A stretch of 64,000 nt of DNA. Origin: Bacteroidota bacterium (lineage in GTDB: Bacteria; Bacteroidota; Ignavibacteria; UBA10030; UBA6906). Positions 33,834 through 53,580 of the stretch are shown here, piece after piece. Where the stretch lies: contig DASRUE010000196.1 of assembly GCA_035687895.1 (NCBI GenBank), forward strand, positions 1,489 through 65,488. The letters run 5' to 3'. Every line of letters starts with the position of its first letter. Position 1 is the stretch's first letter. The notes beneath the pieces were generated by a model. That model worked only from the letters and a program-made list of their open reading frames with translations, had not been told where the DNA came from and searched no databases. Both the position numbers and the translations under genes were made by a program.

Positions 33834-33845
33834 GGTTCTCTACTA

Positions 33846-34082
33846 CTAAAAAGTGAATACGGAGATAGTGCTTGCCAGCAGGTTGTTGATCCCAAGCCGG
33901 GTGTTACAGACTTCGCAAATCACGTTGCCGTTACCCCTATTGAGACAGCGAATGACGGCATTTTCACAAAATCCAAGTTCACGAAGTCGTATACAGACGT
34001 CGGGGTGCGATTGGATTTCCCTAATGCGGACAGGGCGCCCAAGAGGTGCGTTAGCAAGCGTGAATGACGAACTTGGGTTCAT
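33846..34082 (-). CDS. feoA: Second FeoA family protein (tandem paralog)
   Basis: The sequence is LGRPVRIREI...LRELGFCENAVIRCLNRGNGNVICEVCNTRLGI. The start was set to the internal ATG (MNPSSS) 4 nt after the fur stop. Confidence 0.7.
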   Translation of the reverse strand: MNPSSSFTLANAPLGRPVRIREIQSHPDVCIRLRELGFCENAVIRCLNRGNGNVICEVCNTRLGINNLLASTISVFTF

Positions 34083-34086
34083 ATCG

Positions 34087-34530
34087 CTATGCTCTCTTCT
34101 TACATTTGGAACAGATTCCAAAAATCTGAAGTGTTGAACTTTGTGCCTTGAAACTCTTCTCGTCGCACACATCATCTTGAATCCGCTCGAGTTTTTCGTT
34201 TACGAATTCGATAATGTCTCCACAGTCCAGGCAAATAAGATGGTGGTGATGCGGACGCCCGAAGGCTTTCTCGTATCGAGATGTATTTTCGGCAAACCTG
34301 TACTTGGAGACGAGGCCGCATTCCTGAAGCACCTCCAGAGTATTGTATACAGTTGCCTTAGAGACTTTGATGCCATTCGTGATTAACCGGTAGTAGAGTC
34401 CCTCGACATCAAAGTGTCCCTGGCTTTCCAATACTGCGTCTAAGATCGCAAAACGCTCGGGAGTCGAGCGCTGCTTTCCGCTTGCCTTCAGATGGGTTGT
34501 GAGTATCTCGTGCGCTGCGTGAACGTCCAT
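34087..34530 (-). CDS. fur: Fur family transcriptional regulator
   Basis: It has a winged-helix N-terminus, HHHHLICLDCG, and C-terminal CxxC metal sites. Confidence 0.85.
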   Translation of the reverse strand: MDVHAAHEILTTHLKASGKQRSTPERFAILDAVLESQGHFDVEGLYYRLITNGIKVSKATVYNTLEVLQECGLVSKYRFAENTSRYEKAFGRPHHHHLICLDCGDIIEFVNEKLERIQDDVCDEKSFKAQSSTLQIFGICSKCKKRA

Positions 34531-37120: not shown

Positions 37121-37322
37121 TTTGTGCGCAGTTCCCAGCTTTTCGAGAAAGCTATGTATCCACATGGTCAAATCTGCCGTTAAGGTAAAACTTACATGGC
37201 ATAAGCTCTCGAAATCCCCCAGTTTAACTCGTTTTAGGCCCTCCTTTCTGGCTTAACCTTTGCGCAAATCATGACTTACAAATAAGAACCTCTCGAATGT
37301 CCACATTGTCAGAAGGTTGACT

Positions 37323-37703
37323 ATGAGAATCTTGGTTGTTGACGACAATAAGGGTTTCCTCAACGTCATGGGTGACTTGCTGCGCGACTATGGTTACGAG
37401 GTTTTTCTTGCGGAGGATGGAAAGCAGGCCCGGGAGTTCTTGGAAGGAGAGAAGGTCGACGTTATCGTATCCGATGTTTTTATGCCGACGCTTGACGGGA
37501 CTCGGTTCCACAGTTACGTTCGTGAGTTTACGGACTTTCAGGACATTCCTTTCATCTTCATCTCAGGGTACGATGACGAGCACACACGAAATGTAGTAGT
37601 TGATTCCAAGATCGATTTCTTCATCAGCAAAACAGCGCCGGTGGAGACGCTCGTATCTCTGATTGAAAGCCTGAAACCAACAAAGCAGCTAAAGTCCGTC
37701 TGA
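37323..37703 (+). CDS. Single-domain response regulator (PilH/PilG-like position at head of pilus cluster)
   Basis: It has ILVVDDNKGF and VIVSDVFMPTLDG. AGAAGG sits 6 nt upstream of the ATG. The tabled start is a TTG 6 nt upstream. Confidence 0.8.
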   Translation: MRILVVDDNKGFLNVMGDLLRDYGYEVFLAEDGKQAREFLEGEKVDVIVSDVFMPTLDGTRFHSYVREFTDFQDIPFIFISGYDDEHTRNVVVDSKIDFFISKTAPVETLVSLIESLKPTKQLKSV

Positions 37704-37755: not shown

Positions 37756-39627
37756 GTGTCAATTTCGGGAAATGTACATCCCCTACAACGGCCCCTCGAG
37801 GATGAGGAAGCATCATCCGTGTCGTCACACCCAGCGAACGACACCATGTCGAACGGTGCTGGACAACCATTCATGTCCTCCTTCATGGAGCATTTGGTCC
37901 GATCCAAGATCGTGACTGAGGAAGTTGCACTTCGGGCGTCGGCATGGAAACACGAACAGAATGGACGCGGGAAGAAAAGCCTCGTGGAAATCCTTGCGGA
38001 TGAGTTCAGCGTTCCACGGGACATCCTATATAATGAAGTCGCTCACTTCTACTCCTTTCGCATGATCGACCTTAATGATCGGAATGCAAGGAGGCTACCT
38101 CCGTCGACGGTCAACAAACTTCTTGCTGGGCTTCCGGAGTCAATCTACCAACTGGCACTCAAGCACAAAGTTCTTCCATACGAAGTTCCCGAAAACCAGC
38201 CGGACAAAATGTTGGTCGTTACCCCCAACCCTTCTGATCGCGAAGTGTATGAAGTAGCACGTTCGTTCACCTACAAGAAGTTCGAAATATGTTACATGAA
38301 GGAGCGAGACTGGGCGGAGTTCTGGCGCCAGGTCACCTTGGATAAGCAGCAGGTTGTTAGTGGGCTCGGCGGCTCAGACTCGGTTTTTGAGGAAGAGGAT
38401 GCAGAGTTGGACTTGGTGCTGGATAAAGAGATCAACAGAAGCCAGTTGATTGCGCTGGTGGAAAATCTCTTCGCCGATGCTGTGCGTGTCGGTGCCAGTG
38501 ACATTCACATCATGCCTAAAGGAGCACGCAAGACGGTAGTCTCATTCAGACTTGACGGAAGGTTGACTGAGTGGTACACGATTGAGGATGCTCGCGCAGA
38601 AGCCGTAGTTGCGGTTGTTAAAGGCAGGGGGTTGAACCTCGACAGGTTTGAGCGTATGGCCGCCCAGGATGGCTCGGCGCAGAAGGTTATCGATAATCAA
38701 GTGGTCAGGTTTCGCATTTCGATTATTCCAGTTGTCTCGCGTGAGCTGTCCGGCAAGTTCGAATCCGTCGTGATCCGCATTTTGAAGGACGCGGACGCAT
38801 CCGTTACCCTGGAGGCAATCGGTTTCGATCCCTACTCATTGAAGGTTTTCGGTGAGGCGATCGCGAAACCGCATGGCATGGTAATTCTAACGGGACCAAC
38901 GGGGAGCGGAAAAAGCACGACACTCGTTGCTGCGCTTCGGTCCGTGATGCATCCATCACGTAATACTATTACAGTCGAAGACCCAGTGGAATATCTGCTT
39001 GAAGGAGCGCGGCAGGTAAAGCTGAACCATAAACTCAATTTCGATGATGCCTTGCGCGCGATCCTTCGTCACGATCCTGACATTGTGATGGTGGGAGAGA
39101 TCCGTGATCGAATTACCGCAGATCTTGCCATCAAGCTTGCAAATACCGGCCATCTGACATTTTCGACCCTGCACACGAATGACGCGCCAAGCGCTGTCTC
39201 GCGGCTTTTCAAAATAGGTGTGGAACCCTTTCTTCTTGCTCAGGCACTAAATATTGTAGTTGCGCAACGTCTTGTCCGAAAACTCTGTGAAAAGTGCAAA
39301 CAGCCTGTTTCACAGGTGAGCGATATGCTTCTCGCAAAGACAGGATTTACGCAGGAAGAGGCAGAGACAACAACGTTTTACCGGGCAGTGGGATGTATCA
39401 ATTGCGTTGGTGGGTTCAAGGGCCGTACTGCGATTCACGAGTCGCTGTATGTGACGCAAGAAGTCCGAGACATTATCCTTGAGAGTGGAGACAAGATCGA
39501 CGTTAACGCCATCCGTGATACGGCTGTGGCCCACGGCATGCAGACGCTTCGACAGTCTGGTATTGAATTGGTGAAGAGTGGCATCACTACAATGGATGAG
39601 ATCATCAGTGGCACCACAAACGACTGA
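37756..39627 (+). CDS. pilB: GspE/PilB-family secretion ATPase (type IV pilus extension ATPase-like), copy 1
   Basis: It has the Walker A LTGPTGSGKSTTL, the Asp and His boxes, and a tetracysteine CxxC...CxxC. Its N-terminal GSPII_E_N region carries MshEN-like repeats. It uses a GTG start, with AAGGAG 9 nt upstream. Confidence 0.85.
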   Translation: MSISGNVHPLQRPLEDEEASSVSSHPANDTMSNGAGQPFMSSFMEHLVRSKIVTEEVALRASAWKHEQNGRGKKSLVEILADEFSVPRDILYNEVAHFYSFRMIDLNDRNARRLPPSTVNKLLAGLPESIYQLALKHKVLPYEVPENQPDKMLVVTPNPSDREVYEVARSFTYKKFEICYMKERDWAEFWRQVTLDKQQVVSGLGGSDSVFEEEDAELDLVLDKEINRSQLIALVENLFADAVRVGASDIHIMPKGARKTVVSFRLDGRLTEWYTIEDARAEAVVAVVKGRGLNLDRFERMAAQDGSAQKVIDNQVVRFRISIIPVVSRELSGKFESVVIRILKDADASVTLEAIGFDPYSLKVFGEAIAKPHGMVILTGPTGSGKSTTLVAALRSVMHPSRNTITVEDPVEYLLEGARQVKLNHKLNFDDALRAILRHDPDIVMVGEIRDRITADLAIKLANTGHLTFSTLHTNDAPSAVSRLFKIGVEPFLLAQALNIVVAQRLVRKLCEKCKQPVSQVSDMLLAKTGFTQEEAETTTFYRAVGCINCVGGFKGRTAIHESLYVTQEVRDIILESGDKIDVNAIRDTAVAHGMQTLRQSGIELVKSGITTMDEIISGTTND

Positions 39628-39850
39628 TTCGTTAAAGTTCGTCATTACAATAGGTATCGGAAATTCTGACTCTCGTCCAGTTACTTTTACCACAAGCATC
39701 CAAAACCCACACCAGAAAGCCTGTTTTGACGGTCGCTCAATGAATTCTAATTCTGGCATGGCGCTTGGGACATTCTGTTGCACAAACACAAATGAATACA
39801 AACAACTAACTCCCACATTTAATCACATTCACCAATAAAGGAGCTCCACC

Positions 39851-40243
39851 ATGGGACAGCAGCAACTTTTGTTAATCATCCTTGGCGTCATCGTTGTCGG
39901 TATCGCAGTGGCGGTCGGCATCACGATGTTCCAGGATAACGCAGTGTCGGCGAACCGCGATGCGGTCACGAACGATCTCGTGAACCTCGCCTCACGTGCG
40001 CAACAGTACTATCGTCGTCCGACGGCGTTGGGTGGCGGCCAGGGTGACTTTGACGGTCTGACCCTCGTAAAGCTGACCTCCAAGTCAATCAATGCAAACG
40101 GTTCATACGGGCTGACCTCGGCAGCAGGCCAGACAGCTGTTATCGAAGGATATGGCACGGAGAATGGCAATGACGGTTCGACGGTGATTCATCTTACGAT
40201 GAACGTGCTTTCGGATAGCACGTACATTGTAGAAGTTAACTAA
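39851..40243 (+). CDS. Pilin-like protein with a non-canonical N-terminus (MGQQQLLLIILGVIVVGIAVAVG...), candidate major subunit
   Basis: It has a strong SD, AAAGGAG, and an N-terminal hydrophobic helix at residues 5-27. A terminator hairpin follows it. It lacks the G-F-T-L-I-E prepilin motif. Confidence 0.55.
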   Translation: MGQQQLLLIILGVIVVGIAVAVGITMFQDNAVSANRDAVTNDLVNLASRAQQYYRRPTALGGGQGDFDGLTLVKLTSKSINANGSYGLTSAAGQTAVIEGYGTENGNDGSTVIHLTMNVLSDSTYIVEVN

Positions 40244-40252
40244 CGCATGCTT

Positions 40253-40308: not shown

Positions 40309-40719
40309 ATGGGCACTCAACAGTTATTGCTAATCGTCGTCGGCGTCGTCCTCGTTGGAATCATGATTGCAGTGGGACTCTTCATGTTTCGGGACCAGGC
40401 GGCTGCCACGAACAGAGATGCGCTCACAAACGATCTGACACATCTTGCTTCGGCGGCACAGCAGCACTATCGGCGCCCAACGGTTTTTGGTGGTGGACAG
40501 AGGAGATTTACAGGTCTCACGTTGAGCAAGCTGACGACAAAACCCATCAACGCTAATGGGACGTACTCACTGTCTCCGGATCCAGTAACAGGAACACCGG
40601 CCTCGGTTCAGATTACCGGGATTGGGCGTGAAACTGGAATTGATGGGACTAATAAGGTCAAAGTTGTTGTGCTGGTATTCCCCGACAGCGTCTATGTAGA
40701 CGACTCCAACGGCAACTAG
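40309..40719 (+). CDS. Pilin-like protein, tandem paralog (MGTQQLLLIVVGVVLVGIMIAVG...)
   Basis: It shares the first-gene N-terminus and downstream motifs (NRDA.TNDL..LAS.AQQ.YRRPT..GGGQ..F.GLTL.KLT.K.INANG.Y.L). Confidence 0.55.
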   Translation: MGTQQLLLIVVGVVLVGIMIAVGLFMFRDQAAATNRDALTNDLTHLASAAQQHYRRPTVFGGGQRRFTGLTLSKLTTKPINANGTYSLSPDPVTGTPASVQITGIGRETGIDGTNKVKVVVLVFPDSVYVDDSNGN

Positions 40720-40960: not shown

Positions 40961-42340
40961 ATGGCAGAGTTCAGAATCGAAGGTGTCACTGCTGGTGGAA
41001 AACCGGTCCAAGGTATCCTGGAAGCGGACTCCACCCGGTCGGCCAAGCAGAAAGCAGCAGTCATGGCGCAGCAGCGAAAATTCAAGCTGTTGCATGTTGT
41101 TCCTCGCTCCACGTGGGTGTACAAAGTACAGCGCGGGACGGAGAAACCTGTAATTGGTGAGCAGAAAGCCTTCACCAAAGGAGAGGTTCAGGAAGCCCTT
41201 CAGAAAATGGGCTACCGTGTAATCCGAATTCAGAAGCGGCTCATCAACTTCAAAGCAAGACCGCCCGCTACTGAAATCGTGACCTTCGTGCGGGTGAGTG
41301 CGGACCTTATACGGCAGAAGCTTCCGTTCAATGAGATCATGCAGTTGCTGGTGAACGACATTCAGAACAGGACCCTGCGCGAGGCGATCAAGGATATCAA
41401 CGCCGAACTGAAACAGGGCAAAGACAGCGAGCGTGCGTTCATCAAGCACGAAGCAGTTCTCGGTCGGTTCACCGCCCACATGCTCGGCTTGGCCTCGAAG
41501 AGTGGTAACATGGCCGAAATCTATGACAGCACGGCGAAGTTTTTGGAGCGCCAGTCGGAATTTAAAAAGAACCTCAAGAGCGCGCTGATCATGCCCATTG
41601 TGACTCTCTTCGTTCTGTTCGGTGCGGTGGTTTACTATGTCGGATACATCTTTCCGGCGACTGCCAATTTGTTCCGGAAGTTTAATATTGAACTACCGCC
41701 AATGACCCGGGCAACGCTCGCGCTTAGCGATTTTCTGGTGGAGAACATTGTGATAATTCTCATCGGGACAATCATCCCCACCATTCTCGCAGTTCGTTTC
41801 TTCACGACGGAAAAGGGGCGTTTCATTCTTGATCGTTACATCTGGAAGGTCCCCGCAATGGGACAACTCCTCCATAAAATGAGTATCGAGATCTTCTGCC
41901 GGGTATTCTATGCCCTGTACAGTGGGGCGGGCGAGAATATCGAGGTCATCCGTATGGCATCTGAGGCATGCGGCAACAAGTACATGGAGCACCAAATCAA
42001 GACCATCGCACTTCCCCTGATGATTCAAAAAGGTGCGGGTATCACCGAAGCGTTCGAAGCGACGGGTGTCTTTACGAAAACTGCGATTTCGCGATTCCAC
42101 TCGGGAGCCGAGACAGGGACAGTAAAGAACACGGCCCTTCAGCTGGCGGAGTACTACGAGAAGGAAACGTCGTACAAAATGAGGAATGCGATTGACTATA
42201 TTCAGTTGATGATTTCGATGATCATCATGGTTGTGTTGACGGCCCTGACGATTGTGTCGTCCGAGACGGCGACCATTCGGCCCAAGAACCCGGCGCTGGG
42301 TCACGCCACAGTGCAGCACGCTGAAAAGTCCTTGACGTAA
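40961..42340 (+). CDS. pilC: Type IV pilus/T2SS platform protein (two T2SSF domains)
   Basis: It has duplicated GspF-like domains and three TM segments. It is 459 aa, with SD AAGAGGAA. Confidence 0.85.
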   Translation: MAEFRIEGVTAGGKPVQGILEADSTRSAKQKAAVMAQQRKFKLLHVVPRSTWVYKVQRGTEKPVIGEQKAFTKGEVQEALQKMGYRVIRIQKRLINFKARPPATEIVTFVRVSADLIRQKLPFNEIMQLLVNDIQNRTLREAIKDINAELKQGKDSERAFIKHEAVLGRFTAHMLGLASKSGNMAEIYDSTAKFLERQSEFKKNLKSALIMPIVTLFVLFGAVVYYVGYIFPATANLFRKFNIELPPMTRATLALSDFLVENIVIILIGTIIPTILAVRFFTTEKGRFILDRYIWKVPAMGQLLHKMSIEIFCRVFYALYSGAGENIEVIRMASEACGNKYMEHQIKTIALPLMIQKGAGITEAFEATGVFTKTAISRFHSGAETGTVKNTALQLAEYYEKETSYKMRNAIDYIQLMISMIIMVVLTALTIVSSETATIRPKNPALGHATVQHAEKSLT

Positions 42341-42376: not shown

Positions 42377-44164
42377 ATGGCACAGATTGACATTACAGAT
42401 AAGATAGGGTTCGCACTCCTCAAAAAAGGAATCATTGACTACGAGACGCTGGAGAAGTCGCTCAAGGTCAAAGACTCCGAAGGGAAGAAGAACCGGCGGA
42501 ATCTAGGGCAGATCCTCGTCCACGATTTCAATGCCGACCACGACGCGGTGTTCAGAGAAGTTGCCGATCTCTATGCGTTCCGGGAGATCTACCTTGCTGA
42601 TGAAAACATCGAGAAACAACGGATTGATTTCATTAGGAAGTTTGTTGATGCTCTTTCCGAGAGCGCACGCGACATGATGTTGCAGGCCAAGATTCTCCCA
42701 CTCAAGTTCGACGAGAAACAACCGGATAAGTTGGTGGTAATTGCCGCCGACCCGACCGATCGACGCATCCCGCTGGTTGCCCGCAATTTCGGCGTGAAGA
42801 AGTACGAGGTTGTGTACACCCGCCTCAAGGAACTGCAGAACCTCATGGAACAGGTTGTTCCACCGGAGAATGAGTTCCTCCGACTTCTTGAGGATTCACA
42901 GGTCGGCATCGAGGTAAAGGAAGATGAAAGCGCCGTTGATGAAGAGGCGCTCGAAGCGGAGATCGGAAAAAGCGCGTTGGTTAACCTCGTGGAAGGCTCG
43001 TTGATTGAAGCCGTGCGCCAGGGGGTGAGTGATATCCACATTATCGCAAAGGAAGGGAACCGAACCGAGTTTTGGTTTCGAGTGGATGGGAATCTGAAGC
43101 TGTGGCATGTGCAAGAGAACACGATGCCCGAGGCAGTTGCCGCAGTTGTTAAAGACCGTTCCAAGAATATAGACCGTTTCGAACGCGAAATGTCTCAGGA
43201 CGGTTTCATCCAGCGGCTTATCGACGACCACATGATCCGCTTCCGCGTCTCCATCATGCCGATCGTGGGTGTCGAATTCAGACACAAGTTTGAAAGCATC
43301 GTCATCCGTGTGCTGGACGATCGAAAGGTTATCACTGACCTGGATAAGCTGGGCTTGCAGGGCCCAGCGAAAGATTTCTTCTACAAAGCCATTGAGAAAC
43401 CTCAGGGGATCGTCATCCTGACCGGGCCGACTGGAAGCGGTAAGAGCACAACTCTGGTTGCTGCCTTGCACCAGGTGATTGACCCGACGGTGAATGTCCT
43501 CACAGTCGAAGACCCGGTCGAATATATTATACGCGGTGCACGTCAGCTGAAAATTGGCCCAAAAATGAACTTCGATCTGGCCATCCGCGGTATTCTCCGG
43601 CATGACCCGGACATTGTGCTCGTCGGCGAAATGCGTGACAAAGCAACGTCAGAAATCGCCATCAAGCTCGCTAACACAGGCCACCTCACGTTCTCCACGC
43701 TTCACACAAACGATGCACCGAGCGCTGTTGCTAGACTGTACAAAATGGGGATCGAGCCATTTCTGATCGCGTATGCCATTAATATAATTGTGGCCCAGCG
43801 TCTTGTCCGGACGTTGTGCAAAGTCTGCAGACGCCTCATCCCCAAGGAGGAAATTGACCGGGACGTATACCTGAAATTTGGTTTCGCGGAAGAAGACCTT
43901 GAAACACGGACAATGTACGAAGCGGTTGGTTGCGATAAGTGTAATGGAGGATACAAAGGACGTGCTGCAATCCACGAGGCGCTGTATTTCACCCGTGAGA
44001 TTCGCGGGTTGATCGTCAAGGCCGGTGGCGACATTGATGAGGAACAGATTCGCAACCAGGCGATGAAAGATGGGATGTGGACCCTTCGCAGGGCGGGTAT
44101 TGAGAGGATCAAGGATGGTATAACGACGCTCGAAGAAATTGCATCAGCAACAACGGATGATTAA
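42377..44164 (+). CDS. GspE/PilB-family secretion ATPase, copy 2
   Basis: It has the Walker A LTGPTGSGKSTTL and a tetracysteine. Its N-terminus carries MshEN-like motifs (IGFALLKKGIIDYETLEKSL; RNLGQILV...). Confidence 0.85.
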   Translation: MAQIDITDKIGFALLKKGIIDYETLEKSLKVKDSEGKKNRRNLGQILVHDFNADHDAVFREVADLYAFREIYLADENIEKQRIDFIRKFVDALSESARDMMLQAKILPLKFDEKQPDKLVVIAADPTDRRIPLVARNFGVKKYEVVYTRLKELQNLMEQVVPPENEFLRLLEDSQVGIEVKEDESAVDEEALEAEIGKSALVNLVEGSLIEAVRQGVSDIHIIAKEGNRTEFWFRVDGNLKLWHVQENTMPEAVAAVVKDRSKNIDRFEREMSQDGFIQRLIDDHMIRFRVSIMPIVGVEFRHKFESIVIRVLDDRKVITDLDKLGLQGPAKDFFYKAIEKPQGIVILTGPTGSGKSTTLVAALHQVIDPTVNVLTVEDPVEYIIRGARQLKIGPKMNFDLAIRGILRHDPDIVLVGEMRDKATSEIAIKLANTGHLTFSTLHTNDAPSAVARLYKMGIEPFLIAYAINIIVAQRLVRTLCKVCRRLIPKEEIDRDVYLKFGFAEEDLETRTMYEAVGCDKCNGGYKGRAAIHEALYFTREIRGLIVKAGGDIDEEQIRNQAMKDGMWTLRRAGIERIKDGITTLEEIASATTDD

Positions 44165-44215: not shown

Positions 44216-44782
44216 ATGAACCTCGGTCAAAGCATGCTGGTCATTGGTGCAATATTGCTTCTGGGGATTCTTACCCTTAACGCCAACAGGACAGTGATGG
44301 AGACAAATGATGTAACAAATTCAAGCGAGTTCGGAATTGCCGCGGTGTCGCTGGCGACGTCTCTGGTTGAGGAGGCAATGGGGAAGATGTTCGATGAAGT
44401 TGTGGCTGACACGGTGCCTCCAACGATGGCTCTGTCGATTCTCTCGACTACCCTGCAGAAGGAATCAGGCGAGCGGTATCGCGGCGGCACAAACGACTTT
44501 GACGATATTGATGACTACAATAACCTGTTTGTAGTCTATACAAGCCCGAATGACATGAGCGCGGTTGCCGGTGCGGATACGATTCTCGTTGTTCCTGGGT
44601 TGAGAGCCAGATACTATGTGAGAGCAAGAGTCAACTACGTCAACAGTACAGCTCTTGATGACACCACTTCTGCGCGAACGTGGCACAAGAAGATCCGAGT
44701 GGAAGTCACGAGTCCCCGGATATTACCGATCGGGCAGGCACAGGATACACTCGTGTATCCGGCCGTAATGAGTTATTGGTGA
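44216..44782 (+). CDS. Pilin-like/minor-pilin candidate (N-terminal TM helix then L.N.NR motif)
   Basis: The N-terminus is MNLGQSMLVIGAILLLGILTLNANRT. It has no prepilin Gly-Phe/Glu5 motif. Confidence 0.4.
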   Translation: MNLGQSMLVIGAILLLGILTLNANRTVMETNDVTNSSEFGIAAVSLATSLVEEAMGKMFDEVVADTVPPTMALSILSTTLQKESGERYRGGTNDFDDIDDYNNLFVVYTSPNDMSAVAGADTILVVPGLRARYYVRARVNYVNSTALDDTTSARTWHKKIRVEVTSPRILPIGQAQDTLVYPAVMSYW

Positions 44783-44813
44783 GTATGAGAATCTGCCTTG
44801 TGGAAGGGATATC

Positions 44814-45437
44814 ATGAGTGTAATTCTTGATTTAATCTGGTCGACGTTGATCGCAGCCTTCGTCATCCTATTGGGGTTGCGCCTGAACGCGAGTATTGCG
44901 GGGAGTGCAGATGCTTCAAAGGCCAGTCTCAACGTCCAGGAATCTTTGGTTGACATCGTTCAAACGATCGAGTACGATTTCAGGAAAATCGCATACCGAA
45001 TTGCTGATCCTTCGGCCGCAATTATCGTAGCTGACTCGAGTCGGTTGACCTTCTTGTCGGACATTGACAACAACGGCACCATTGATACGGTTTCGTGGTA
45101 TGCGGGACCGAAACTCACGTCGATGGCAAACCCGAACATCCGCGGCCTCTTCAGATCAGTGAGTGGAGAAGGGGCGGTCGCAGCGCCAGGGTTGGGTGTG
45201 ACAGAGTTTCATCTCAAGTACCTGGATCAGGATGGAGTCGAGATTTCGTCGTCGTACCCGCTACCAATAGCCGACCTTCGACGGATCTGGATCATAGAGA
45301 CGACGATGATGATTGAGAGTCCATACAAGGTGCAAGATCAACTGAATCCTGAAATGAGTTATGCAGATATGGGATACGCTGCTGCCTTTTGGAGACAAAC
45401 GCGGCTTGCATCGCGCAATATCCGGCGGCACGGCTAG
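44814..45437 (+). CDS. Pilin-like/minor-pilin candidate (PilW/GspJ-like region SDIDNNGTIDTVSWY)
   Basis: The N-terminus is MSVILDLIWSTLIAAFVILLGLRLNAS, with SD GGAAGGG. Confidence 0.45.
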   Translation: MSVILDLIWSTLIAAFVILLGLRLNASIAGSADASKASLNVQESLVDIVQTIEYDFRKIAYRIADPSAAIIVADSSRLTFLSDIDNNGTIDTVSWYAGPKLTSMANPNIRGLFRSVSGEGAVAAPGLGVTEFHLKYLDQDGVEISSSYPLPIADLRRIWIIETTMMIESPYKVQDQLNPEMSYADMGYAAAFWRQTRLASRNIRRHG

Positions 45438-45488
45438 GCACCGGCGAATGATAGCAGGTTCTAGTTCTTCATCTAAGTAGGGGGATCT

Positions 45489-46820
45489 ATGGGAAAAGCA
45501 AGTATCGTCTATGTGATCGGGTTGACTCTTGTTCTGGGTATCGCACTGTTCAACATCAACAGATCCAGCACGGACTCGATGGATACATATACCGAGTACT
45601 ATGGACGAACGATGGCGCACAACATCGCATCGGCAGGAGCGAACATTGCAACCAGTGCGCTACTGGTTCCTCCAGTGGCAATTGTCTCCGGCACCGATTC
45701 GTTCGCAGGGGGGACATACACCGTTCGGGTAGACAGCTTGAATTCAAACGGAGATAGTGTAGTGGTGGTGTCCACATCAAAGATTGATCTCTACGACAAC
45801 ATTGCTGAAAACCAAATCATCCGCGATACCATCGTGGCGAAACTCAGGCACCGACGGTTTGCGGAGTATGCTTATTTCTCCCAATCGGAGACGAACGGTT
45901 ACCTTGCTCCTGGGAGCACTGCGGCTCCATCAGGTGTCAATATGTGGAAAATTACAGGTGATTCACTTTTTGGACGAGCTCACACAAACGGTCGATGGAA
46001 TCTCTCAGGGAGACCGTATTTTGAGGATCGAGTAACGGCTCAGTTCGCAGCAAACCTTGCGGCAGGAGCAAATCCTATTTATAACAAGGGGTATCAGTGG
46101 CAAGTATATCTTAATCGTCCTGCAAGCAACTTGACCAATCTTGAGGCACGCGCAAACGCTGGCGGAGCCTTATTGACGAATAACGATGTTGCACTTACTT
46201 TTTTCCCTAATGGGAATGTGAATGTCCGGATTCCACCGACGACTGGCGGAACGCGCAACGATACAATTCCTATCTCGACCCTTACAAGTACGGGCGTTGT
46301 GGCCGTGAAAAACGGAGACGTGCGCGTCAAGGGGACCTACCAAGGTCAGTTGACTGTCGTGGCCCTCAAGGGAACAACTGCAGGTAATACCAAAGGGAAC
46401 ATCTGGATCGATGGAAATATTGTTGCGGCAACGAACCCGAACGGCAACATGTCTTCACCTGATATGCTCGGTCTGGTTGCCCAAAGAATGGCATATGTGA
46501 CAACCCGGGATCCAGCCACGGGGCTTTGGATCCCGCGTACATCAGCATCGGTTCTGAATATTCAGGCTGCGATCTATACGCACGAAGGGACGTTTGCCGC
46601 GCAAGAGTACAACAACACAGGTCTCGGGCTCTGCGGGAGAATCAACCAGTTCGGGGCTCTGGCGATGGCTGCATCCACTTCGACCGGTCTTATGAGCGGC
46701 GGTGTGATCTCTAATGGGTTTTTAAAGACAATTCGGCATGATCCACGGTATGATGAACAAGCGCCTCCTGGCTTTCCAGCGTCCGACAGCTACGTGCTTG
46801 TTTCGTGGTGGGAAAAATAG
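45489..46820 (+). CDS. Large pilin-like/pilus-tip candidate protein (443 aa, N-terminal TM helix)
   Basis: The N-terminus is MGKASIVYVIGLTLVLGIALFNINRS. It is Gly/Asn/Thr-rich and predicted to be beta-rich. Confidence 0.4.
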   Translation: MGKASIVYVIGLTLVLGIALFNINRSSTDSMDTYTEYYGRTMAHNIASAGANIATSALLVPPVAIVSGTDSFAGGTYTVRVDSLNSNGDSVVVVSTSKIDLYDNIAENQIIRDTIVAKLRHRRFAEYAYFSQSETNGYLAPGSTAAPSGVNMWKITGDSLFGRAHTNGRWNLSGRPYFEDRVTAQFAANLAAGANPIYNKGYQWQVYLNRPASNLTNLEARANAGGALLTNNDVALTFFPNGNVNVRIPPTTGGTRNDTIPISTLTSTGVVAVKNGDVRVKGTYQGQLTVVALKGTTAGNTKGNIWIDGNIVAATNPNGNMSSPDMLGLVAQRMAYVTTRDPATGLWIPRTSASVLNIQAAIYTHEGTFAAQEYNNTGLGLCGRINQFGALAMAASTSTGLMSGGVISNGFLKTIRHDPRYDEQAPPGFPASDSYVLVSWWEK

Positions 46821-46872
46821 GTACAACATGCAGGATATGAGATGAACGATGCTTTTCCACAAATCCCAAGAA

Positions 46873-46906
46873 ATTCATTGACATTACTTACGTCAATGAA
46901 TATATT
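46873..46906 (+). promoter_or_regulatory. Promoter TTGACA-N17-TATATT overlapped by a perfect inverted repeat ATTCATTGAC-N9-GTCAATGAAT (candidate operator) upstream of the pilT-like gene
   Basis: The 10-bp arms are perfect. They span the -35 through the -10. Confidence 0.5.
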
Positions 46907-46981
46907 CAACGTGAATTCGTGTGACCAATATCAGAGCGGACGGCGAAAGCACGCAACGGAAAGTGACCAAGAGAGCTTGAG

Positions 46982-48214
46982 ATGATAGCAACAGCAGTAA
47001 AAACATTGCAGGATATCGCAGCATCCATCCCGGATACAGCCCCAGGCATGGAACGGCAGATGCTAATTGGGGATTTGGTCTCGAAACAATCTCCCGCCGA
47101 GCGTACTGCCCTACGGAAGCTCATGGACAGCTACCTGACGCGGATGAGCAAAATCAACGCATCAGATATAGATATGGGCGGTTATGGATGTGGCGGTCAC
47201 ATCTGGTATCGCGTGTATGGTGACAAGAAGGTCGATGCTGCGATTGGGAAATTCACACATGATGAGTTTAACGTTCTCATTCAGAGCGTCTTGATTGAGC
47301 GGCAGCGCCTTTTCCTGTATGAAAACCGAAATCTTGATTTCTCATACAGTATCGTTGAAGACGACAAGATGTTCAGGTTTCGCGCGGACGCGTACTTCGA
47401 CCTCGATCAACTGGCGCTCAACATGCGCGCTATTAACGCGACGGTTCGTCCGTACAAGAATCTGGAACTCAATCCGAATGTAACTAAAGCGCTCAGTCTC
47501 TCCTATACGCAGCAAGGGCTCACGCTTATCACTGGCATCACGGGTTCGGGGAAAAGCGCTACACTCGACAGTATCATCGACGCAAACAACCATACCGTAG
47601 ATGCGCATGTTGTGATCATTGCATCCCCGGTGGAGTATGTTCATAAACCGGATCGTTGCATTATCCGCCATCGAGAAGTGGGACGAGATGTTCTGTCGTT
47701 CAAGGAAGGGGCCATTCAGGCATTGCGACAAGACCCCGATATCATTGTAATCGGAGAAATGCGCGATCCGGATACAATTATGACGGCTCTCGAAATCACA
47801 GATAGTGGTCATAAAGTGTTCTCGACGCTCCACACCGCCTCGGCCGTGGAAACCATAGATCGTGTCATTGGCGAAGTTCCACCGGTCGAGCAAGAACGTG
47901 TAAGGATGCGTCTTGCGGACACGTTGAGTTGTGTGATGTCACAGAAACTGGTTCCGAGCTTGGACGGGAAGCTGGTTCTCGCAAAAGAAGTTATGGTAAT
48001 GATCCCGTCCGTACGGGCAGCGATTAAGAACAATAATACGGGTGAAGTCTACCAGATGATGGCCGAATCAGGTGATCTGGGAATGATCACCCTTGAGCAG
48101 GACCTGAAAAGATTGTACATGCAGAAGAGGATATCGCTGGAGAATGCTATAGTCACGGCAAACAACAAGCGACGCTTCCAGCAGATCATGAACTTAACTC
48201 CTGTGGGAGACTGA
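46982..48214 (+). CDS. pilT: PilT/PilU-family retraction ATPase with an ~55-aa N-terminal extension
   Basis: It has the Walker A ITGITGSGKSATL, a KINASDIDMGG (ASDLH-like) region, and the His-box region STLHTASAVETIDR. Confidence 0.8.
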   Translation: MIATAVKTLQDIAASIPDTAPGMERQMLIGDLVSKQSPAERTALRKLMDSYLTRMSKINASDIDMGGYGCGGHIWYRVYGDKKVDAAIGKFTHDEFNVLIQSVLIERQRLFLYENRNLDFSYSIVEDDKMFRFRADAYFDLDQLALNMRAINATVRPYKNLELNPNVTKALSLSYTQQGLTLITGITGSGKSATLDSIIDANNHTVDAHVVIIASPVEYVHKPDRCIIRHREVGRDVLSFKEGAIQALRQDPDIIVIGEMRDPDTIMTALEITDSGHKVFSTLHTASAVETIDRVIGEVPPVEQERVRMRLADTLSCVMSQKLVPSLDGKLVLAKEVMVMIPSVRAAIKNNNTGEVYQMMAESGDLGMITLEQDLKRLYMQKRISLENAIVTANNKRRFQQIMNLTPVGD

Positions 48215-48272
48215 CGCGAGGGTACGAGGAGTCATCACGAACACTTTCTAGAACAATACAGGAAGCTCCCCT

Positions 48273-49826
48273 ATGGCTTCTATGAAAGGGCCGAACAAGA
48301 CAGTCCTTGGAATCTTTGTCGACGGTCTGGATGTTAAGCTCGCTCATCTGAGCGTAAAAGGAAAACGGGTCACCGTACATGAGTTGCGGTCTGGGACCCT
48401 TGTAGCGAAGCTGGAAGAGCGCAAGGCAGTTGAAGTTGGCAGCATGTCCGACACCGCCGATGCGTTCAGCTTACCCGCTGGTATTTCTGCGGATTCCGGC
48501 ATTGAAGCCCAATCGGAGGACAACAATGCCGTCTTGCTGGGCCTTCTTGCCCAGTATCCTTCCAACAAGTACTCACTGACCTATAGCATCGCCGAACCAG
48601 CGATCTACTATCACCTCCTGGAAAGTGATTTTGGCTTGAAAGGGAAGAAGCTCAAGGAACGAATCCTTGCAGAGCTTAGAAACATTCGCGCCTTTCAGCC
48701 TGCAGCTGATGCTGTAGATGCCATTACCACGGATGAGGGGAACCTCCTCTGTGTGGTCCGCGAAGATGGGCTTAGCCTCATCAATTCTCTTGAGAACATC
48801 AAGGGGTTCATGGGTAACAGGTTGCCCCGGATCCCGGCGATCGACAGCGCTGACATTTCGTTGATGAACCTTGTCAGGCTGAACTATGACCTTCAGCCCC
48901 AGGAAGTTTCCGTTATCATTTATGTGGGTGTTGAGTTTACCCGCTTGATCTTCATGAGGGGGAGTCAGTTCTATCAGTTTGCCCCGATCCTTGGAGAAGG
49001 GTACGATTCGCCGAACCTCCAAAACACGGTCTACAGCAGGCTATTGCTGGAACAGGATAATCTAGCCATCCCTCGCATCAGTAAGATCATACTTGCAGGC
49101 GAATGTCGTCGCATCAACTTCAAAGAGTTCCTCACCCAGCAACTCCCTGATCAAGAAGTCGACTACCTGTTGACGCCTCAGCTTGATTCCAGTCCGTTGC
49201 CTCCTGAACAACAGGAGTCAATCTCGGAGTTTGCCGTGCCTATTGCCGCGGCATGGAAGGTGTTGGATCCCACGAACCCGAGAATTTACAATATTAACCT
49301 CTTACCCGCGATTGTGCGGGAAGGTCAGCGTGTCTTCAAACTGGCATGGCACGGATATCTCCTCCTCCTCCTGCTCTTCTTTTCGACCCTGTTCTTCACA
49401 TGGTCGATTGCGCGAAAGCAGCGCGATATCGTCGAGCAGTCTGACGTCCTCGAACGAAAGAAAGTCCAGCTTGCGGAGAATGAGGCAGTGCAGAATTCCA
49501 TCATTGACCTCCAGCAACAAATAGCCCGCTACCAGACTTCCCTGGCATTGTATGACACCCTTGTGCCAGGTAGTGAACGATGGAGCAAGGTCTTCACCCA
49601 GTTTAGCCACGGTGTGGAGGACTTGAATTCGATCTGGTTGACGGACTTCTCAACTGGTGATGCCGGCGTGATGACTGTAAACGGGTTTACGGTGTACCGG
49701 ACCCGCATCCCGCGGCTCGCAACATTGTTTGATAACACGCTCCTGAAGGAAGTAAATGTGCAGGCGATTCGTGAGCAGGCCGTCTATCGGTATAAGATTG
49801 AAGTACCTGCCCCGTCCGGGCAGTAG
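48273..49826 (+). CDS. PilM-PilN fusion protein (actin-like PilM domain, then TM helix and coiled coil)
   Basis: The first ~340 aa resemble PilM (VLGIFVDGLDVKLAHL...). A TM helix LLLLLLFFSTLFFTWSI follows at ~350, then a Q/E-rich coiled coil. Confidence 0.6.
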   Translation: MASMKGPNKTVLGIFVDGLDVKLAHLSVKGKRVTVHELRSGTLVAKLEERKAVEVGSMSDTADAFSLPAGISADSGIEAQSEDNNAVLLGLLAQYPSNKYSLTYSIAEPAIYYHLLESDFGLKGKKLKERILAELRNIRAFQPAADAVDAITTDEGNLLCVVREDGLSLINSLENIKGFMGNRLPRIPAIDSADISLMNLVRLNYDLQPQEVSVIIYVGVEFTRLIFMRGSQFYQFAPILGEGYDSPNLQNTVYSRLLLEQDNLAIPRISKIILAGECRRINFKEFLTQQLPDQEVDYLLTPQLDSSPLPPEQQESISEFAVPIAAAWKVLDPTNPRIYNINLLPAIVREGQRVFKLAWHGYLLLLLLFFSTLFFTWSIARKQRDIVEQSDVLERKKVQLAENEAVQNSIIDLQQQIARYQTSLALYDTLVPGSERWSKVFTQFSHGVEDLNSIWLTDFSTGDAGVMTVNGFTVYRTRIPRLATLFDNTLLKEVNVQAIREQAVYRYKIEVPAPSGQ

Positions 49827-49859: not shown

Positions 49860-50756
49860 TTGTCATACAAAATACGAAATAGCGTCGTGCTGGGCGTCCT
49901 GCTCTTCCTCGTCCTTGGAGTAGGAGTGTATGTCCGCGGCTTCAATCTTCCGGGGAAACTCAACAAGATTGAGACAGAGATCCGCACCATTGAGGACCAG
50001 CTGCAGAACACGCCAAACTTGGTGGCGGAGTTCAACGATCTGAGCGCCAACCTTGCGGACACAAAGAAGCGCTGGGAAAACCGGAACAAGGATATCCCAC
50101 CGGTGGATGTTACGTCTCAGACCTATGCATATTTCAGCCGATTGATTGACTTGAGTGGCGATGTGAAACTTGACCTTCTGTACACTGGAGTAGAGCAAAA
50201 AGGGAACTACGGGTTCAATGTGTACAATTTAAGGGGCGAGGCGCCGTTTGAAAACTTTTACAGGTTCATCTGGTACCTTGAAAACGGTCGTAAACTCTAC
50301 AAGATCAAAAAAATGAATGTGAAGGGGCTTGAGATAGCTCCCAAAGAGGATGAGCCGGGCGGCATTTTGGTCACCTTTGAGATGGTCGTCCATGCATATT
50401 TCTCGTCGGTCGCAGAGCTTGCGAGCGCTCCCGGTGAACGAACCATAACGCCAAATTATCTGATGATTGATCCTTTCAATCCGGTGATTTCGAGCGACAT
50501 TCCGGCCAACCTCCGGAAGCTGATAGAGATTGAGCGTTCCGATTTGAAAGCAGTCATTCCAGGAAAGGCGTTTGTCCTTGATCAGACAAACGCGTTCAGA
50601 ACACTGACGGAAGGGGATGAAGTTTACCTTGGCTATGTGACCAAGATCGACCCCGAACTAGGACGGATCGAGTGCACGCTCAACAAGGGCGGCATCATTG
50701 AGAAGGTGGAATTGAAGATACGCTACGGCATTCAACAAAACGTTGTGCAAAAATAG
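49860..50756 (+). CDS. PilO/PilN-family inner-membrane pilus alignment protein
   Basis: It uses a TTG start, with AAAGGAGAG 5 nt upstream. An N-terminal TM helix is followed by a coiled coil and then a ferredoxin-like periplasmic region. Confidence 0.5.
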   Translation: MSYKIRNSVVLGVLLFLVLGVGVYVRGFNLPGKLNKIETEIRTIEDQLQNTPNLVAEFNDLSANLADTKKRWENRNKDIPPVDVTSQTYAYFSRLIDLSGDVKLDLLYTGVEQKGNYGFNVYNLRGEAPFENFYRFIWYLENGRKLYKIKKMNVKGLEIAPKEDEPGGILVTFEMVVHAYFSSVAELASAPGERTITPNYLMIDPFNPVISSDIPANLRKLIEIERSDLKAVIPGKAFVLDQTNAFRTLTEGDEVYLGYVTKIDPELGRIECTLNKGGIIEKVELKIRYGIQQNVVQK

Positions 50757-50769
50757 GATCGAGGACAGC

Positions 50770-52023
50770 ATGAAAACACGCACTATTGTCTGCATACTTA
50801 CTCTGCTGGCAGCCAGCATGGCACCGGCCCTTGGTCAGACAAACCCCGAGGAGCGACGCTCGTTCCGGGAGTACACATCTCCTGAAGAACTCGTCTCAAT
50901 TGCTCCGACTGCCACGATGGACAAGGCGCTTGCAGCCATCAGCGAGGTAAGTCGGAAGTTCGTCGGGAAGATCATTATTGATACGGAGCGGCGGACGATG
51001 CCGGTCAACGTCGACATCCAGGGCGTGCAGTGGCGCGACGCCCTTGAGATGATCTGTCGCAAAAATGAGATCTGGTACTCGGAGTATGAAAACTATATCC
51101 AGCTCACATCGTCCGGCAGCGCAACGACTGCCGATGGTGCGCGGCAGGGAGCCGCCGCCGCCGGGAGCCCCGATATCCAGAAGGAATTTGCCACCTTCAG
51201 GAGCCGGGAAATCAAAATCTCGGGAGTTTTTTTGGAAGTGAATCTGAGCAAACTCGATGAAGTCGGATTGAACTGGACTTTCATGAAGAGTACATCAGAC
51301 TATTCGATCAATTCCTCACTCGCCGCGGGTGATAGGGTTTCTAGTGAGATCTTCAAAACGGAAATCACACCGAAGGTGAGCTTCGCCAACATTAACATCC
51401 TCGCAAAGATGTTCTCGAACTACAACCTTGGTGAGATTCTTTCAAGTCCGCAAATCAACGTGCGTTCGGGGGAAGATGGAAGGATACAGGTAGGGCAGGA
51501 CTTCTCCATTAAAGAGCGTGACTTTGCCGGTAACCTGATCGATAAGTTCTACAGTGCTGGAACGATCATCAAGGTGAAGCCGCAGGTGATCAACGAGCAA
51601 GGGGTGAACTTCGTGCACATGGTGGTTGATGTTGAGCGCAGCTCGGTGGTGCCCGGGTCCGTTAGCACAATCATCAACAAGACGAAAGCAAGTACCAACG
51701 TCCTTCTGCTCGACGGTGAAGAAACAATCATTGGTGGTTTGTACACCACAGAGGTCACCACGGTGCGTTCAGGTATTCCATTTCTGAAGGACCTGCCTTG
51801 GTATGTCTTTGGTCTCCGGTATCTGTTTGGGTATAACAGAGAGGAAGAGACGAAGAAGGAGCTTATCATCCTTCTGAAAGCTGAGCTCGTCCCGACATTG
51901 CAGGAACGGATTACGCAGAAGACCAGGCCGGGTGAACTTTACGAGCAGTGGCGGGCGGATCGTGCGAAGGAAGAGCAAAACCTCAAAGGCGAGAGCGCCG
52001 CAGACGAAAGTGAAGAAAAGTAA
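50770..52023 (+). CDS. pilQ: Secretin (type II/III secretion system protein family), short form
   Basis: It has a signal peptide. The C-terminal secretin domain is NVLLLDGEETIIGGL...SGIPFLKDLPWYVFGLRYLFG. The start was set to the ATG (MKTRTIV) in the tabled frame. Confidence 0.75.
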   Translation: MKTRTIVCILTLLAASMAPALGQTNPEERRSFREYTSPEELVSIAPTATMDKALAAISEVSRKFVGKIIIDTERRTMPVNVDIQGVQWRDALEMICRKNEIWYSEYENYIQLTSSGSATTADGARQGAAAAGSPDIQKEFATFRSREIKISGVFLEVNLSKLDEVGLNWTFMKSTSDYSINSSLAAGDRVSSEIFKTEITPKVSFANINILAKMFSNYNLGEILSSPQINVRSGEDGRIQVGQDFSIKERDFAGNLIDKFYSAGTIIKVKPQVINEQGVNFVHMVVDVERSSVVPGSVSTIINKTKASTNVLLLDGEETIIGGLYTTEVTTVRSGIPFLKDLPWYVFGLRYLFGYNREEETKKELIILLKAELVPTLQERITQKTRPGELYEQWRADRAKEEQNLKGESAADESEEK

Positions 52024-52059
52024 TCCTCCATGGGAACCACAACATTTAGGGGACGGTCA

Positions 52060-53517
52060 ATGAAGAGAACTATGCTCATGCTGGCGCTCGTTGCCACGAT
52101 GGCACTCGTCCTGTTTGCGTGCAAGAGCGACGAACAGGGGGCAACACAGGGTGAAGGTGTCATTACCGGAGTTGTCACGGACGCGGCAACGGGGAATGCA
52201 CTGGCGTCTGTGACTCTGCAGGCACAGACGATTGGTGGCGCAACCCAGACAGCTACCACGGACGCACAGGGTAACTTTCGCTTCAGCTTTACCACTGATA
52301 GTGCCAAGTCTGTCACAATCTCCGTCACAAAATCGGGGTACCGCGATACGTCGGTTGTTGTTCAAATTCAGCCCGGTGTTGTCGTGACCCTTGGCCTCCA
52401 GATAGCTGCGCGATCACCAATTTCTGGTGTTGGAGGAGGCAGCGGGGTTGCGCAGACTATTGCCTTCCTCGGAGCCAGCCCCCGGCAAATCTCAGTCTAT
52501 GGTGTCGGCGGACTGGAGACATCCATACTCGGATTCGAAGTACGCGATTCACTTGGACTCGCTATAGATGCAGCACATTCCGTTAGCATGAGTTTTCAGA
52601 TTGTCGGTGGATTGAACGGCGGCGAATACATTTCGCCACTCTCTGTCACCACTAATGCCATCGGTCAGGCCTATACCACGTTCAATAGCGGGATCCGGGC
52701 AGGCGTCTTTCAGGTTGTTGCAACGGTGACTTTGGCCGGACGCCCGCCGATCACTTCGAATCCGGTCAGGTTGATCATTACGGCTGGATTCCCGGATCAG
52801 GCGCACTTCACAATCGGCATCGACCGCTTTAATTTCCCGGCACTGGGAATTGTCGGCAAGCGGAATAGTGTAAGTGTTCTCGTGGGCGATAAGTACACAA
52901 ACCCGGTCCAACCGAACACTGCTGTGTACTTCAGAAGTAGTGCAGGGGTTATTCAGCCCAGCGTTTTTACGGACGCAAGTGGCCAGGGGACTGTGGACCT
53001 CATCAGTGGAAACCCGGCACCATTTGGCATCTATGCGGCTCGGCCGCCATATGGTCCGGATACAGCGGGCTATCACCATATCGTCGCGCGAACCGTGGGT
53101 GAAGGTGGTGTGACGGTTCAGGACAGCACATTGATCCTTTGGAGCGGCGGGTCCATAATCTCAAATGTCAATCCCACGACTTTTAATATCCCGGACGGTG
53201 GTTTCCAAGACTTCACCTTTACTGTCTCTGACTTCCTCGGGCACCCACTGTCGGAAGGGACTATCATCAGTGTGCAGGCCACTGTGCCACCTCCCCCCGA
53301 TCCAAATGCTCAAGTTAATCAGGTCCAGCTTGCTTTCGGGCGGAATGGCTCACTGACCTTGCCGGATGTTATATTGCCTGGACCCGGAAGGACGGCTTTC
53401 GGCTTCCGCCTTAGCGATGGGAGTACGATTGTCGCGGTAACACCGGTTACTGTCTCAATCACGGTGACGAGCGAGAACAATAACGCTTACTTCACGTTCT
53501 TCGGTATTGTCAACTAG
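52060..53517 (+). CDS. Lipoprotein with a CarboxypepD-reg-like domain and Ig-like repeats, last gene of the pilus cluster
   Basis: It has a lipobox LFAC. GVITGVVTDAATGNALASVTLQ...DAQGNFRF resembles CarbopepD_reg. AGGGGA precedes the ATG. Confidence 0.6.
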   Translation: MKRTMLMLALVATMALVLFACKSDEQGATQGEGVITGVVTDAATGNALASVTLQAQTIGGATQTATTDAQGNFRFSFTTDSAKSVTISVTKSGYRDTSVVVQIQPGVVVTLGLQIAARSPISGVGGGSGVAQTIAFLGASPRQISVYGVGGLETSILGFEVRDSLGLAIDAAHSVSMSFQIVGGLNGGEYISPLSVTTNAIGQAYTTFNSGIRAGVFQVVATVTLAGRPPITSNPVRLIITAGFPDQAHFTIGIDRFNFPALGIVGKRNSVSVLVGDKYTNPVQPNTAVYFRSSAGVIQPSVFTDASGQGTVDLISGNPAPFGIYAARPPYGPDTAGYHHIVARTVGEGGVTVQDSTLILWSGGSIISNVNPTTFNIPDGGFQDFTFTVSDFLGHPLSEGTIISVQATVPPPPDPNAQVNQVQLAFGRNGSLTLPDVILPGPGRTAFGFRLSDGSTIVAVTPVTVSITVTSENNNAYFTFFGIVN

Positions 53518-53546
53518 TATCCGTTAGCGATTTCTGTGGTATCAAA

Positions 53547-53580
53547 CCCCGGCGAGGTACTCGCCGGGGTTTTGTCATTT
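53547..53580 (+). terminator. Strong rho-independent terminator ending the pilus cluster
   Basis: A CCCCGGCGAG-GTA-CTCGCCGGGG stem-loop is followed by TTTTGTCATTTGTT. Confidence 0.75.

Follow-up and report, generated by a model that had tools for sequence, protein, structure and literature searches.

The window analysed here, meaning the whole stretch of 64,000 nucleotides, derives from what we take to be an uncultured Ignavibacteria-type bacterium, filed as 'Bacteroidota bacterium', and carries a type IV pilus gene cluster. A single-domain CheY-like gene (37317-37703) precedes the first PilB paralogue (37756-39627), which is followed by two pilin-like genes (39851-40243 and 40309-40719), PilC (40961-42340) and PilB (42377-44164). 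Three further reading frames, orfA, orfB and orfC (44216..46820, + strand), encode proteins with a pilin-like N-terminal hydrophobic helix and end 161 nt before the pilT-family ATPase gene (46982..48214, + strand). The 410-aa product of the latter belongs to the PilT/PilU family, matching PF00437 and TIGR01420 (313.6 bits, just below the 319.1 cut-off), and has a counterpart of 100% identity in a MAG filed under 'Bacteroidota bacterium'. Gene order is conserved in relatives as CheY-pilB2-pilins-pilC-pilB-(orfABC)-pilT-PilM-like-next gene-secretin-Big_1-UvrA. The two PilB-type assembly ATPases are ~47% identical in relatives, many of which conserve the pair.

The pilin-like proteins begin MGQQQLLLIILGV... 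and MGTQQLLLIVVGV...; they lack the usual G/FTLIE prepilin motif and have no Pfam pilin match. The products of orfA-orfC show the N-terminal hydrophobic helix only, the largest having a weak DUF4900 match. Both groups may represent non-canonical pilins. An AAGGAG ribosome-binding site stands before the ATG of a pilin-like gene, and a sigma-54-like element, TGGCATGGCGCTTGG (39754-39768), lies ~95 nt upstream of the first of these genes. Elements of the form TGGCAY-N5-TTG are found upstream of the pilin genes in most of ~45 related loci, and this conservation across the lineage places pilin and pilT on different sigma factors here.

Downstream of pilT, on the same strand (+), lie a PilM-like gene (48273-49826), a gene at 49860-50756, a secretin gene (50743-52023) and a gene for a Big_1/CarboxypepD_reg protein (52030-53517), each of which is probably co-transcribed with pilT. 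The successive gaps measure 58, 33, -14 and 6 nt, no terminator was found in 48215-48272, and the first strong intrinsic-terminator-like hairpin downstream is located at 53544..53572 (+ strand; 13 pairs, 9 of them G-C, with 5 T in the 8 bases of a T-rich tail). Because the gaps are short and such a hairpin appears only at 53544, the promoter in front of pilT probably serves envelope-spanning machinery as well, driving the PilM-like gene, the 49860-50756 gene and the secretin gene rather than pilT alone. The interval between orfC and this promoter also yielded no terminator, so that read-through from the upstream pilC-pilB-minor-pilin genes is possible too. The first-pass annotation, made from the letters of this DNA before the present analysis, had concluded that retraction is gated separately from extension; given a promoter that probably also drives envelope machinery and the missing upstream terminator, this statement is too strong.

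The pilT promoter and its counterparts in relatives

The 161-bp gap in front of pilT contains a sigma-70-type promoter with the -35 hexamer TTGACA (46878..46883, + strand) and, after a 17-bp spacer, the -10 hexamer TATATT (46901..46906, + strand). This combination is an 11/12 match to the sigma-70-type pattern and the best promoter-like site in 40-54 kb; it is intergenic, faces the gene and stands 76 nt upstream of the pilT ATG. The spacing typical of a -10 predicts a transcription start at ~46913, which would give a 5'UTR of ~69 nt.

Comparison with 173 loci around PilT orthologues of 69-100% identity, which together with the window amount to 1.9 Mb, shows that the promoter is conserved. The exact string TTGACA-N17-TATATT, expected ~0.008 times per 128 kb of two-strand sequence, occurs 66 times in the 1.9 Mb, and 64 of these occurrences stand 30-130 nt upstream of pilT. 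The promoter is retained down to 71% PilT identity, and its -35 hexamer is invariant in 60 distinct orthologous promoters, themselves selected on the pattern. The conserved promoter is the most solid result of the analysis, stronger than the palindrome that overlies it. Its closeness to consensus and its conservation lead us to expect a promoter of high intrinsic strength. In the variants L088, L026/L124 and L082 the spacer measures 18 bp.

The remaining two of the 66 exact promoters are both in the window (3933-3961 and 21365-21393), both intergenic and gene-facing. The former faces a sugar transferase gene (4187), and the latter faces a gene (21447-22055) that comes after a PAS-GAF hybrid kinase and encodes a response regulator whose N-terminal domain is HTH_17. 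The spacers of both carry CT(G/C)CAGT at positions 13-19.

Control of pilT varies within the lineage, where its upstream regions are of window type, sister type, sigma-54 type or promoter-less. In at least 13 relatives (L012, L016, L025, L031, L034, L037-L039, L043, L044, L131, L134 and L171), pilT follows 10-33 nt behind pilB and has no promoter of its own. In ~40 others (L004, L017, L018, L023, L024, L029, L032-L036, L041, L042, L045, L047 and others), a sigma-54-like TGGCAY-N5-TTG element upstream of pilT replaces the sigma-70 promoter. Both arrangements are further reasons to regard separate gating of retraction as overstated. Some loci combine a sigma-70-like site with a distal sigma-54-like one upstream of pilT.

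Dyad symmetry over the promoter

Direct reading of the sequence gives a perfect 10-bp inverted repeat, ATTCATTGAC-N9-GTCAATGAAT, at 46873-46901. The inner five bases of its left arm ATTCATTGAC (46873..46882, + strand) belong to the -35 and the outer five to an A/T-rich stretch upstream of it; the 9-nt spacer of the repeat is ATTACTTAC (46883-46891, + strand), and the right arm GTCAATGAAT (46892..46901, + strand) includes a conserved CAATG(G/A)A block abutting the -10. Thus the repeat covers the first five -35 bases and the entire 17-bp promoter spacer, and has one base in common with the -10. The coordinates, the overlap with a consensus promoter and the PilT-family gene downstream, all reported by the first-pass annotation, are confirmed. 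A repeat search extended the arms to 15 nt at 87% complementarity, and the full 29-mer is unique within the window even at 3 mismatches (0 expected). Perfect 10-bp inverted repeats with a spacer of up to 20 nt occur at 7 places in the window versus ~1.3 in shuffles, at least two of the others being G+C-rich terminator-like hairpins. The repeat class itself is therefore not rare, and what is unusual is its coincidence with the best promoter of the 161-bp gap, which is not expected by chance (roughly 0.001 by our own estimate). The half-site centres, taken from the 6-bp cores in ATTGAC-N9-GTCAAT, are 15 bp apart, a spacing that is awkward for a simple dimer and atypical for a single helix-turn-helix dimer.

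Two other symmetries occupy the same promoter. An alternative 17-bp dyad register in the promoter spacer (46882..46898, + strand) reads CATT-N9-AATG in the window and CAWTGG-N5-YCAWTG in a sister clade. In addition, a perfect 12-bp palindrome, TGAATATATTCA (TGGATATATTCA in most relatives), is centred on the -10 (46897..46908, + strand); conservation of its outermost TG (46897-98) and CA (46907-08) is confined to the clade of 83-100% PilT identity. The -10 palindrome is even-length (6-0-6), unlike the 7-1-7 layout of a Fur box.

The retention of the 10-bp register was followed in 15 distinct window-type promoters, defined by TTGACATT...CAATGRATATATTCA. They have 10, 9, 8, 7, 8, 8, 7, 6, 10, 9, 5, 6, 5, 5 and 6 Watson-Crick pairs, a mean of 7.3/10 (range 5-10) versus 1.3-4.9 with the right arm slid, so several retain 5-6/10. 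The nearest relatives (97-98% PilT identity) have 9/10 (L161) and 8/10 (L163), the pairs being lost without compensation, and a 1-nt indel disrupts the outer arm in L005 and L166. The perfect 10/10 of the window rests on a derived G to A change at 46899, where most relatives have G; the change appears recent and may simply give a tighter site. The outer left-arm bases vary among relatives (ATTCA, ATTCG, TTCCA, ATCTA, TCTTA and others). One promoter, L167 (ATCTATTGAC/GTCAATAGAT), located via a PilT 88% identical to that of the window, reaches 10/10 with two exchanged pairs (T:A to C:G and C:G to T:A), and L083 (TCCATTGAC/GTCAATGGA) reaches 9/10 with one.

Covariation in the 10-bp register is not significant when Watson-Crick pairs only are counted (109/150 versus 106.6 ± 2.0, equivalent to 900 of 5000 shuffles, p ~0.18). 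With G-U allowed, 82.7% of pairs are formed versus 81.2 ± 0.7 in column shuffles (20-26 of 500), and only one pair is changed on both sides. In the absence of significant covariation, two conserved sequences, the -35 being one of them, account for most of the symmetry, and the 10-bp palindrome in its exact form is an elaboration specific to this lineage, for which the statistical support is weak. Of the repressor operator placement claimed by the first-pass annotation, the classical occlusion position over a real promoter stands, and the full 10-bp symmetry proves to be specific to the window. The same annotation had taken non-conservation in orthologous pilT upstream regions as the sign of a spurious motif; the core and the right arm recur in the closest clade, which speaks against that reading.

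The bases that are held constant extend beyond the hexamers. Across the clade with 83-100% PilT identity, the near-invariant stretches, numbered from the first T of the -35, are TTGACAWT (positions 1-8), CAWTG(G/A)A (positions 17-23; 46894-46900 in the window) and TATATTCA (positions 24-31), while positions 13-16 and 32-42 vary freely. Among the 15 window-type promoters, CAAT, A33 and the adjoining TATATTCA are invariant. The conserved non-sigma block is accordingly CAWTGRA-TATATT-CA (46894-46908). Neither of the other two exact promoters in the window (3933 and 21365) has this block before its -10 or the bases after it; because the extra bases are absent from both, the block is pilT-specific, as far as two comparators can show, and not general to the RNA polymerase of the lineage. 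On the strand of the gene, 29 of 43 matches to TG[GA]ATATATT are at pilT promoters. The canonical extended -10 is TGnTATAAT, and an element of this kind was rejected on two counts, the TG being one base too distant from the hexamer and the block being missing from the two comparator promoters. CAWTG was also considered as a restriction or methylation target and discarded, as it is not depleted (200 observed versus 163 expected).

A symmetry scan peaks at centre 10, which is the 10-bp register, and at centre 13. The latter corresponds to the sister-clade dyad CAWTGG-N5-YCAWTG, for which 22 promoters are 86.4% paired versus 79.6 ± 2.1 and covariation is significant (score 0.206 versus 0.099, 0/500 shuffles; Watson-Crick pairs only, 100/132 versus 92.2 ± 2.6, 13/5000, p ~0.003). 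The window retains only the outer four pairs of the centre-13 register, CATT...AATG (46882-46898). The right half-site beside the -10 is the common denominator; the distance to its left partner is 12 bp in the sister clade, 18 bp in the window lineage (where the partner is CATTG overlapping the -35) and 7 bp in L088. The sister-clade partner, CAWTG, is 3 bp closer than that of the window lineage. In L088 the promoter spacer holds a compact CAATG-AG-CATTG palindrome, a third spacing of these pentamers.

Sister-clade promoters have further features in their surroundings. Just upstream of the -35 (~10-20 nt), L011, L013, L014, L100 and L109 carry an 11-bp palindrome, CTGTGTCACAG, at the place where other members have CTTTGTCCCGG. 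A nearly invariant leader, TCATTCGTCAAATCTCGCGATATG, is common to the promoters of this clade.

A second box in the leader and the search for a regulator

Downstream of the -10, at ~+8 to +23 of the predicted transcript, lies a CRP/FNR-like box of the form TGTGA-N6-TCAGA (TGTGACCAATATCAGA, 46920..46935, + strand). Fourteen copies are found at -52 to -65 from a pilT ATG and 1 elsewhere in the 1.9 Mb. TGTGA and TCAGA are conserved in the 14 loci, the ends of the N6 are variable, and the distance between box and -10 ranges from 10 to 17 nt across loci; the pilT leader shows no stable RNA fold (5'UTR fold z = +1.3). The variable distance, the variable N6 ends and the unfolded leader together give the box the look of a CRP/FNR-type protein site rather than of an RNA hairpin. 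Three relatives without a strong promoter (L010, L040 and L086) have kept it. Two other identities were rejected: a degenerate sigma-54 promoter, since GG-N10-GC is not matched in our own consensus comparison, and an RNA hairpin, since the closing pair may be C:G, T:G, C:A or T:A without constraint.

The box matches the CRP core TGTGA-N6-TCACA at 9/10 positions, its copies in several relatives have A/T-rich flanks (AAAT...TTTT), and it is placed in the control region of a pilus gene. Vfr in Pseudomonas aeruginosa is a known case of a CRP-family protein that controls pilus genes (PMC8787478). The pilT-leader box differs from CRP/Vfr sites in that its right half is always TCAG and never TCAC, and in its placement downstream of the -10, where a bound protein would repress or form a roadblock rather than activate; this suggests repression or a separate role. 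The box, which is distinct from the palindrome flagged by the first-pass annotation, probably provides a second and independent input, through a protein of the CRP/FNR type. The window ORFs that were scanned included no CRP-family gene. Further along the leader, GTGACCAA (46963..46970, + strand) is a direct repeat of 46921-46928, 42 nt apart, and forms part of a conserved RGTGAY motif situated 15-31 nt before the pilT ATG. RGTGAY is separated from the box by either 43-44 or 33-34 nt, two distances that differ by one helical turn.

The first-pass annotation had envisaged a regulon definable by scanning for TTGAC-N8-9-GTCAA. In the window, both TTGAC-N9-GTCAA and TTGAC-N8-GTCAA occur at chance frequency (for the latter, with up to 1 mismatch, 3 matches versus 2.99 expected) and delimit no regulon. 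In the 1.9 Mb of window and pilus neighbourhoods, ATTGAC-N8/9/10-GTCAAT with up to 1 mismatch has 16 matches at pilT promoters; away from these promoters ATTGAC-N9-GTCAAT at the same tolerance has 5 matches versus ~4 expected, and the search brought up no further copy of the dyad. The TTGAC-N8-GTCAA palindrome at 8711, which had been presented as related, does exist, but it is a 5-bp repeat of different spacing and chance frequency over a weak promoter (TTGACG-N17-TACATT) and was set aside as a related operator. The right-arm 9-mer TCAATGAAT has a third exact copy at 39737-39745, just upstream of the pilin sigma-54 element. It was dropped as a regulon lead; the copy is absent from all orthologous pilin upstream regions, those of the closest relatives being cut off by contigs that end short of this region.

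A cognate regulator had been anticipated near the pilus loci of relatives, but the conserved pilus neighbourhood was found to hold no DNA-binding gene. Regulatory genes elsewhere in the window encode a Fur-family protein (34087-34530) and the HTH_17 response regulator (21447-22055), for neither of which a link to the palindrome site was found; the histidine kinases and the CheY-like receiver protein of the window have no DNA-binding domain. The Fur-family gene (- strand) stands beside FeoB (31465-33585) in the region 31465-34530, where two small ORFs (33582-33833 and 33846-34175, - strand) look FeoA-like by eye. This region is an iron-uptake unit unrelated to the palindrome.

Interpretation of the site and its relation to known systems

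The leading interpretation, to which a probability of roughly 45% is assigned, is that of a composite repressor operator over the near-consensus, housekeeping-type promoter TTGACA-17-TATATT, the palindrome being the form which that operator takes locally. A dimeric (or dimer-of-dimers) DNA-binding protein, encoded elsewhere, would bind across the -35, the spacer and the -10 and would exclude RNA polymerase, so that the strong promoter would stay off until the protein is released. As a near-consensus promoter needs no activator, negative control would be the economical reading. The promoter and its conservation, the constant bases outside the hexamers, the dyads and the covariation of the sister clade are shown; protein binding, repression and an importance of the window's own 10-bp symmetry are what we infer from the pattern of bases. 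In a bolder form of the proposal, which must be considered quite unlikely, a dedicated Ignavibacteria regulator would gate the pilT/PilM-like/secretin promoter via CAWTG half-sites whose partner is shifted between clades (12, 18 or 7 bp). If that were true, the operator would have changed register, or regulator and operator would have co-evolved, while the promoter beneath stayed fixed; other clades would have exchanged the entire control region for a sigma-54 promoter or joined pilT to pilB.

The principal alternative, possible although on the unlikely side, accepts a functional promoter and regards the dyad as incidental. The left arm would then consist simply of the -35 with an A/T-rich, UP-like stretch, conservation of the right arm would have another cause, for example a -10-centred site (TGRATATATTCA) of a different protein or RNA polymerase contacts, and GTCAA would complement TTGAC by happenstance. 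This accords with the lack of significant covariation in the 10-bp register, with a perfect state that amounts to one derived base, and with TGAATATATTCA being itself a perfect palindrome. Three of the ten pairs are fixed merely since CAA (17-19) complements the TTG of the -35, and sister-clade promoters with a non-complementary left flank, CTTGTTGAC, keep the right arm. However, the differing outer arms of three lineages complement their own right arms (ATTCA/TGAAT, TCCA/TGGA and ATCTA/TAGAT), and the sister-clade dyad, built on the same right half-site, covaries significantly. Polymerase contacts as the cause of the conserved right arm also fit poorly, in that the TG is misplaced for a canonical extended -10 and the two other exact promoters of the window do without the block.

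It has also to be asked whether the repeat acts as RNA in read-through transcripts; placed between the two halves of the pilus cluster, it could terminate weakly, insulate, or affect processing or stability. Read-through RNA would indeed carry the repeat, given that no terminator separates orfC from the promoter; its fold has -10.8 kcal/mol and z = -2.7, and with G-U pairs on the + strand the stems are complete in L003 and L173 (10/10) and reach 9/10 in L001, while one pair of the sister-clade dyad is most often G-U. Nevertheless, mismatches of the A-C and G-T classes are similarly frequent, the ATTACTT of the loop is conserved as well, and the register with the -35 and -10 stays the same whether orfC or pilB precedes it. 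The stem, rich in A/T, encloses a 9-nt loop and lacks a U tract, in contrast to the G+C-rich terminators at 40252 and 53544, and there is no Rfam match: none at E up to 1 in 46780-47020, and tRNA only in the whole window at the gathering threshold. These features make an RNA role very improbable. As an intrinsic terminator in the strict sense the repeat was rejected, having 3 G-C among 10 pairs, a 9-nt loop and the tail AUAUUCAA, and not being called by the terminator scan.

That only the two hexamers are functional and the palindrome is pure chance is scarcely credible. It is true that ~1.3 perfect 10-bp repeats are expected per 64 kb and that the window holds no more matches to the 5-bp core than chance predicts. 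Yet dozens of species retain the positions outside the hexamers where those next to them vary, nothing close to the 29-mer turns up elsewhere, and the related contigs are not near-clonal (83-89% PilT identity, divergent flanks).

The composite-operator reading has counterparts among well-known systems. Steric-occlusion operators on strong sigma-70 promoters include lambda OR with cI, tetO with TetR, and LexA boxes, and the pilT dyad likewise extends over a near-consensus promoter from its -35 through the spacer to the -10. QacR binds its 28-bp IR1 as two dimers, and the pilT site, at 29 bp with 10-bp arms, is of comparable length. The difference from the occlusion operators is that the symmetry at pilT is only partly conserved and shifts its register by 3 bp between sister clades. 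In MerR-type promoters, a dyad lies between the -35 and -10 hexamers of over-long 19-20-bp spacers. The pilT dyad also occupies the spacer, and the HTH_17 (MerR/excisionase-like) response regulator at 21447-22055 is driven by exactly the same promoter type; MerR-type logic was nonetheless rejected for pilT, where the spacer has the optimal 17 bp and not 19-20 bp. Sigma-54/PilR-type control of pilA is established in Pseudomonas, Myxococcus and Geobacter. The pilin genes of the present lineage and ~40 orthologous pilT genes, with their TGGCAY-N5-TTG elements, resemble it, whereas pilT in the window has a sigma-70-type promoter with operator-like dyads and no sigma-54 element.

The site is a new instance of the textbook operator-over-promoter arrangement in a poorly studied lineage, and it changes no general concept. 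Should it prove a genuine operator, negative control would act on pilT and on the PilM-like and secretin genes at an otherwise very strong promoter, with the pilin gene controlled separately by a sigma-54-type promoter. The comparison also presents a case in which the control region of one gene is rewired among close relatives, being served by a sigma-70 promoter with dyads, by a sigma-54 promoter or by no promoter at all. Together, the 29-bp site and the CRP-like box would then offer a concrete, testable handle on pilus regulation in Ignavibacteria that are widespread in soil and sediment and have almost no genetics.
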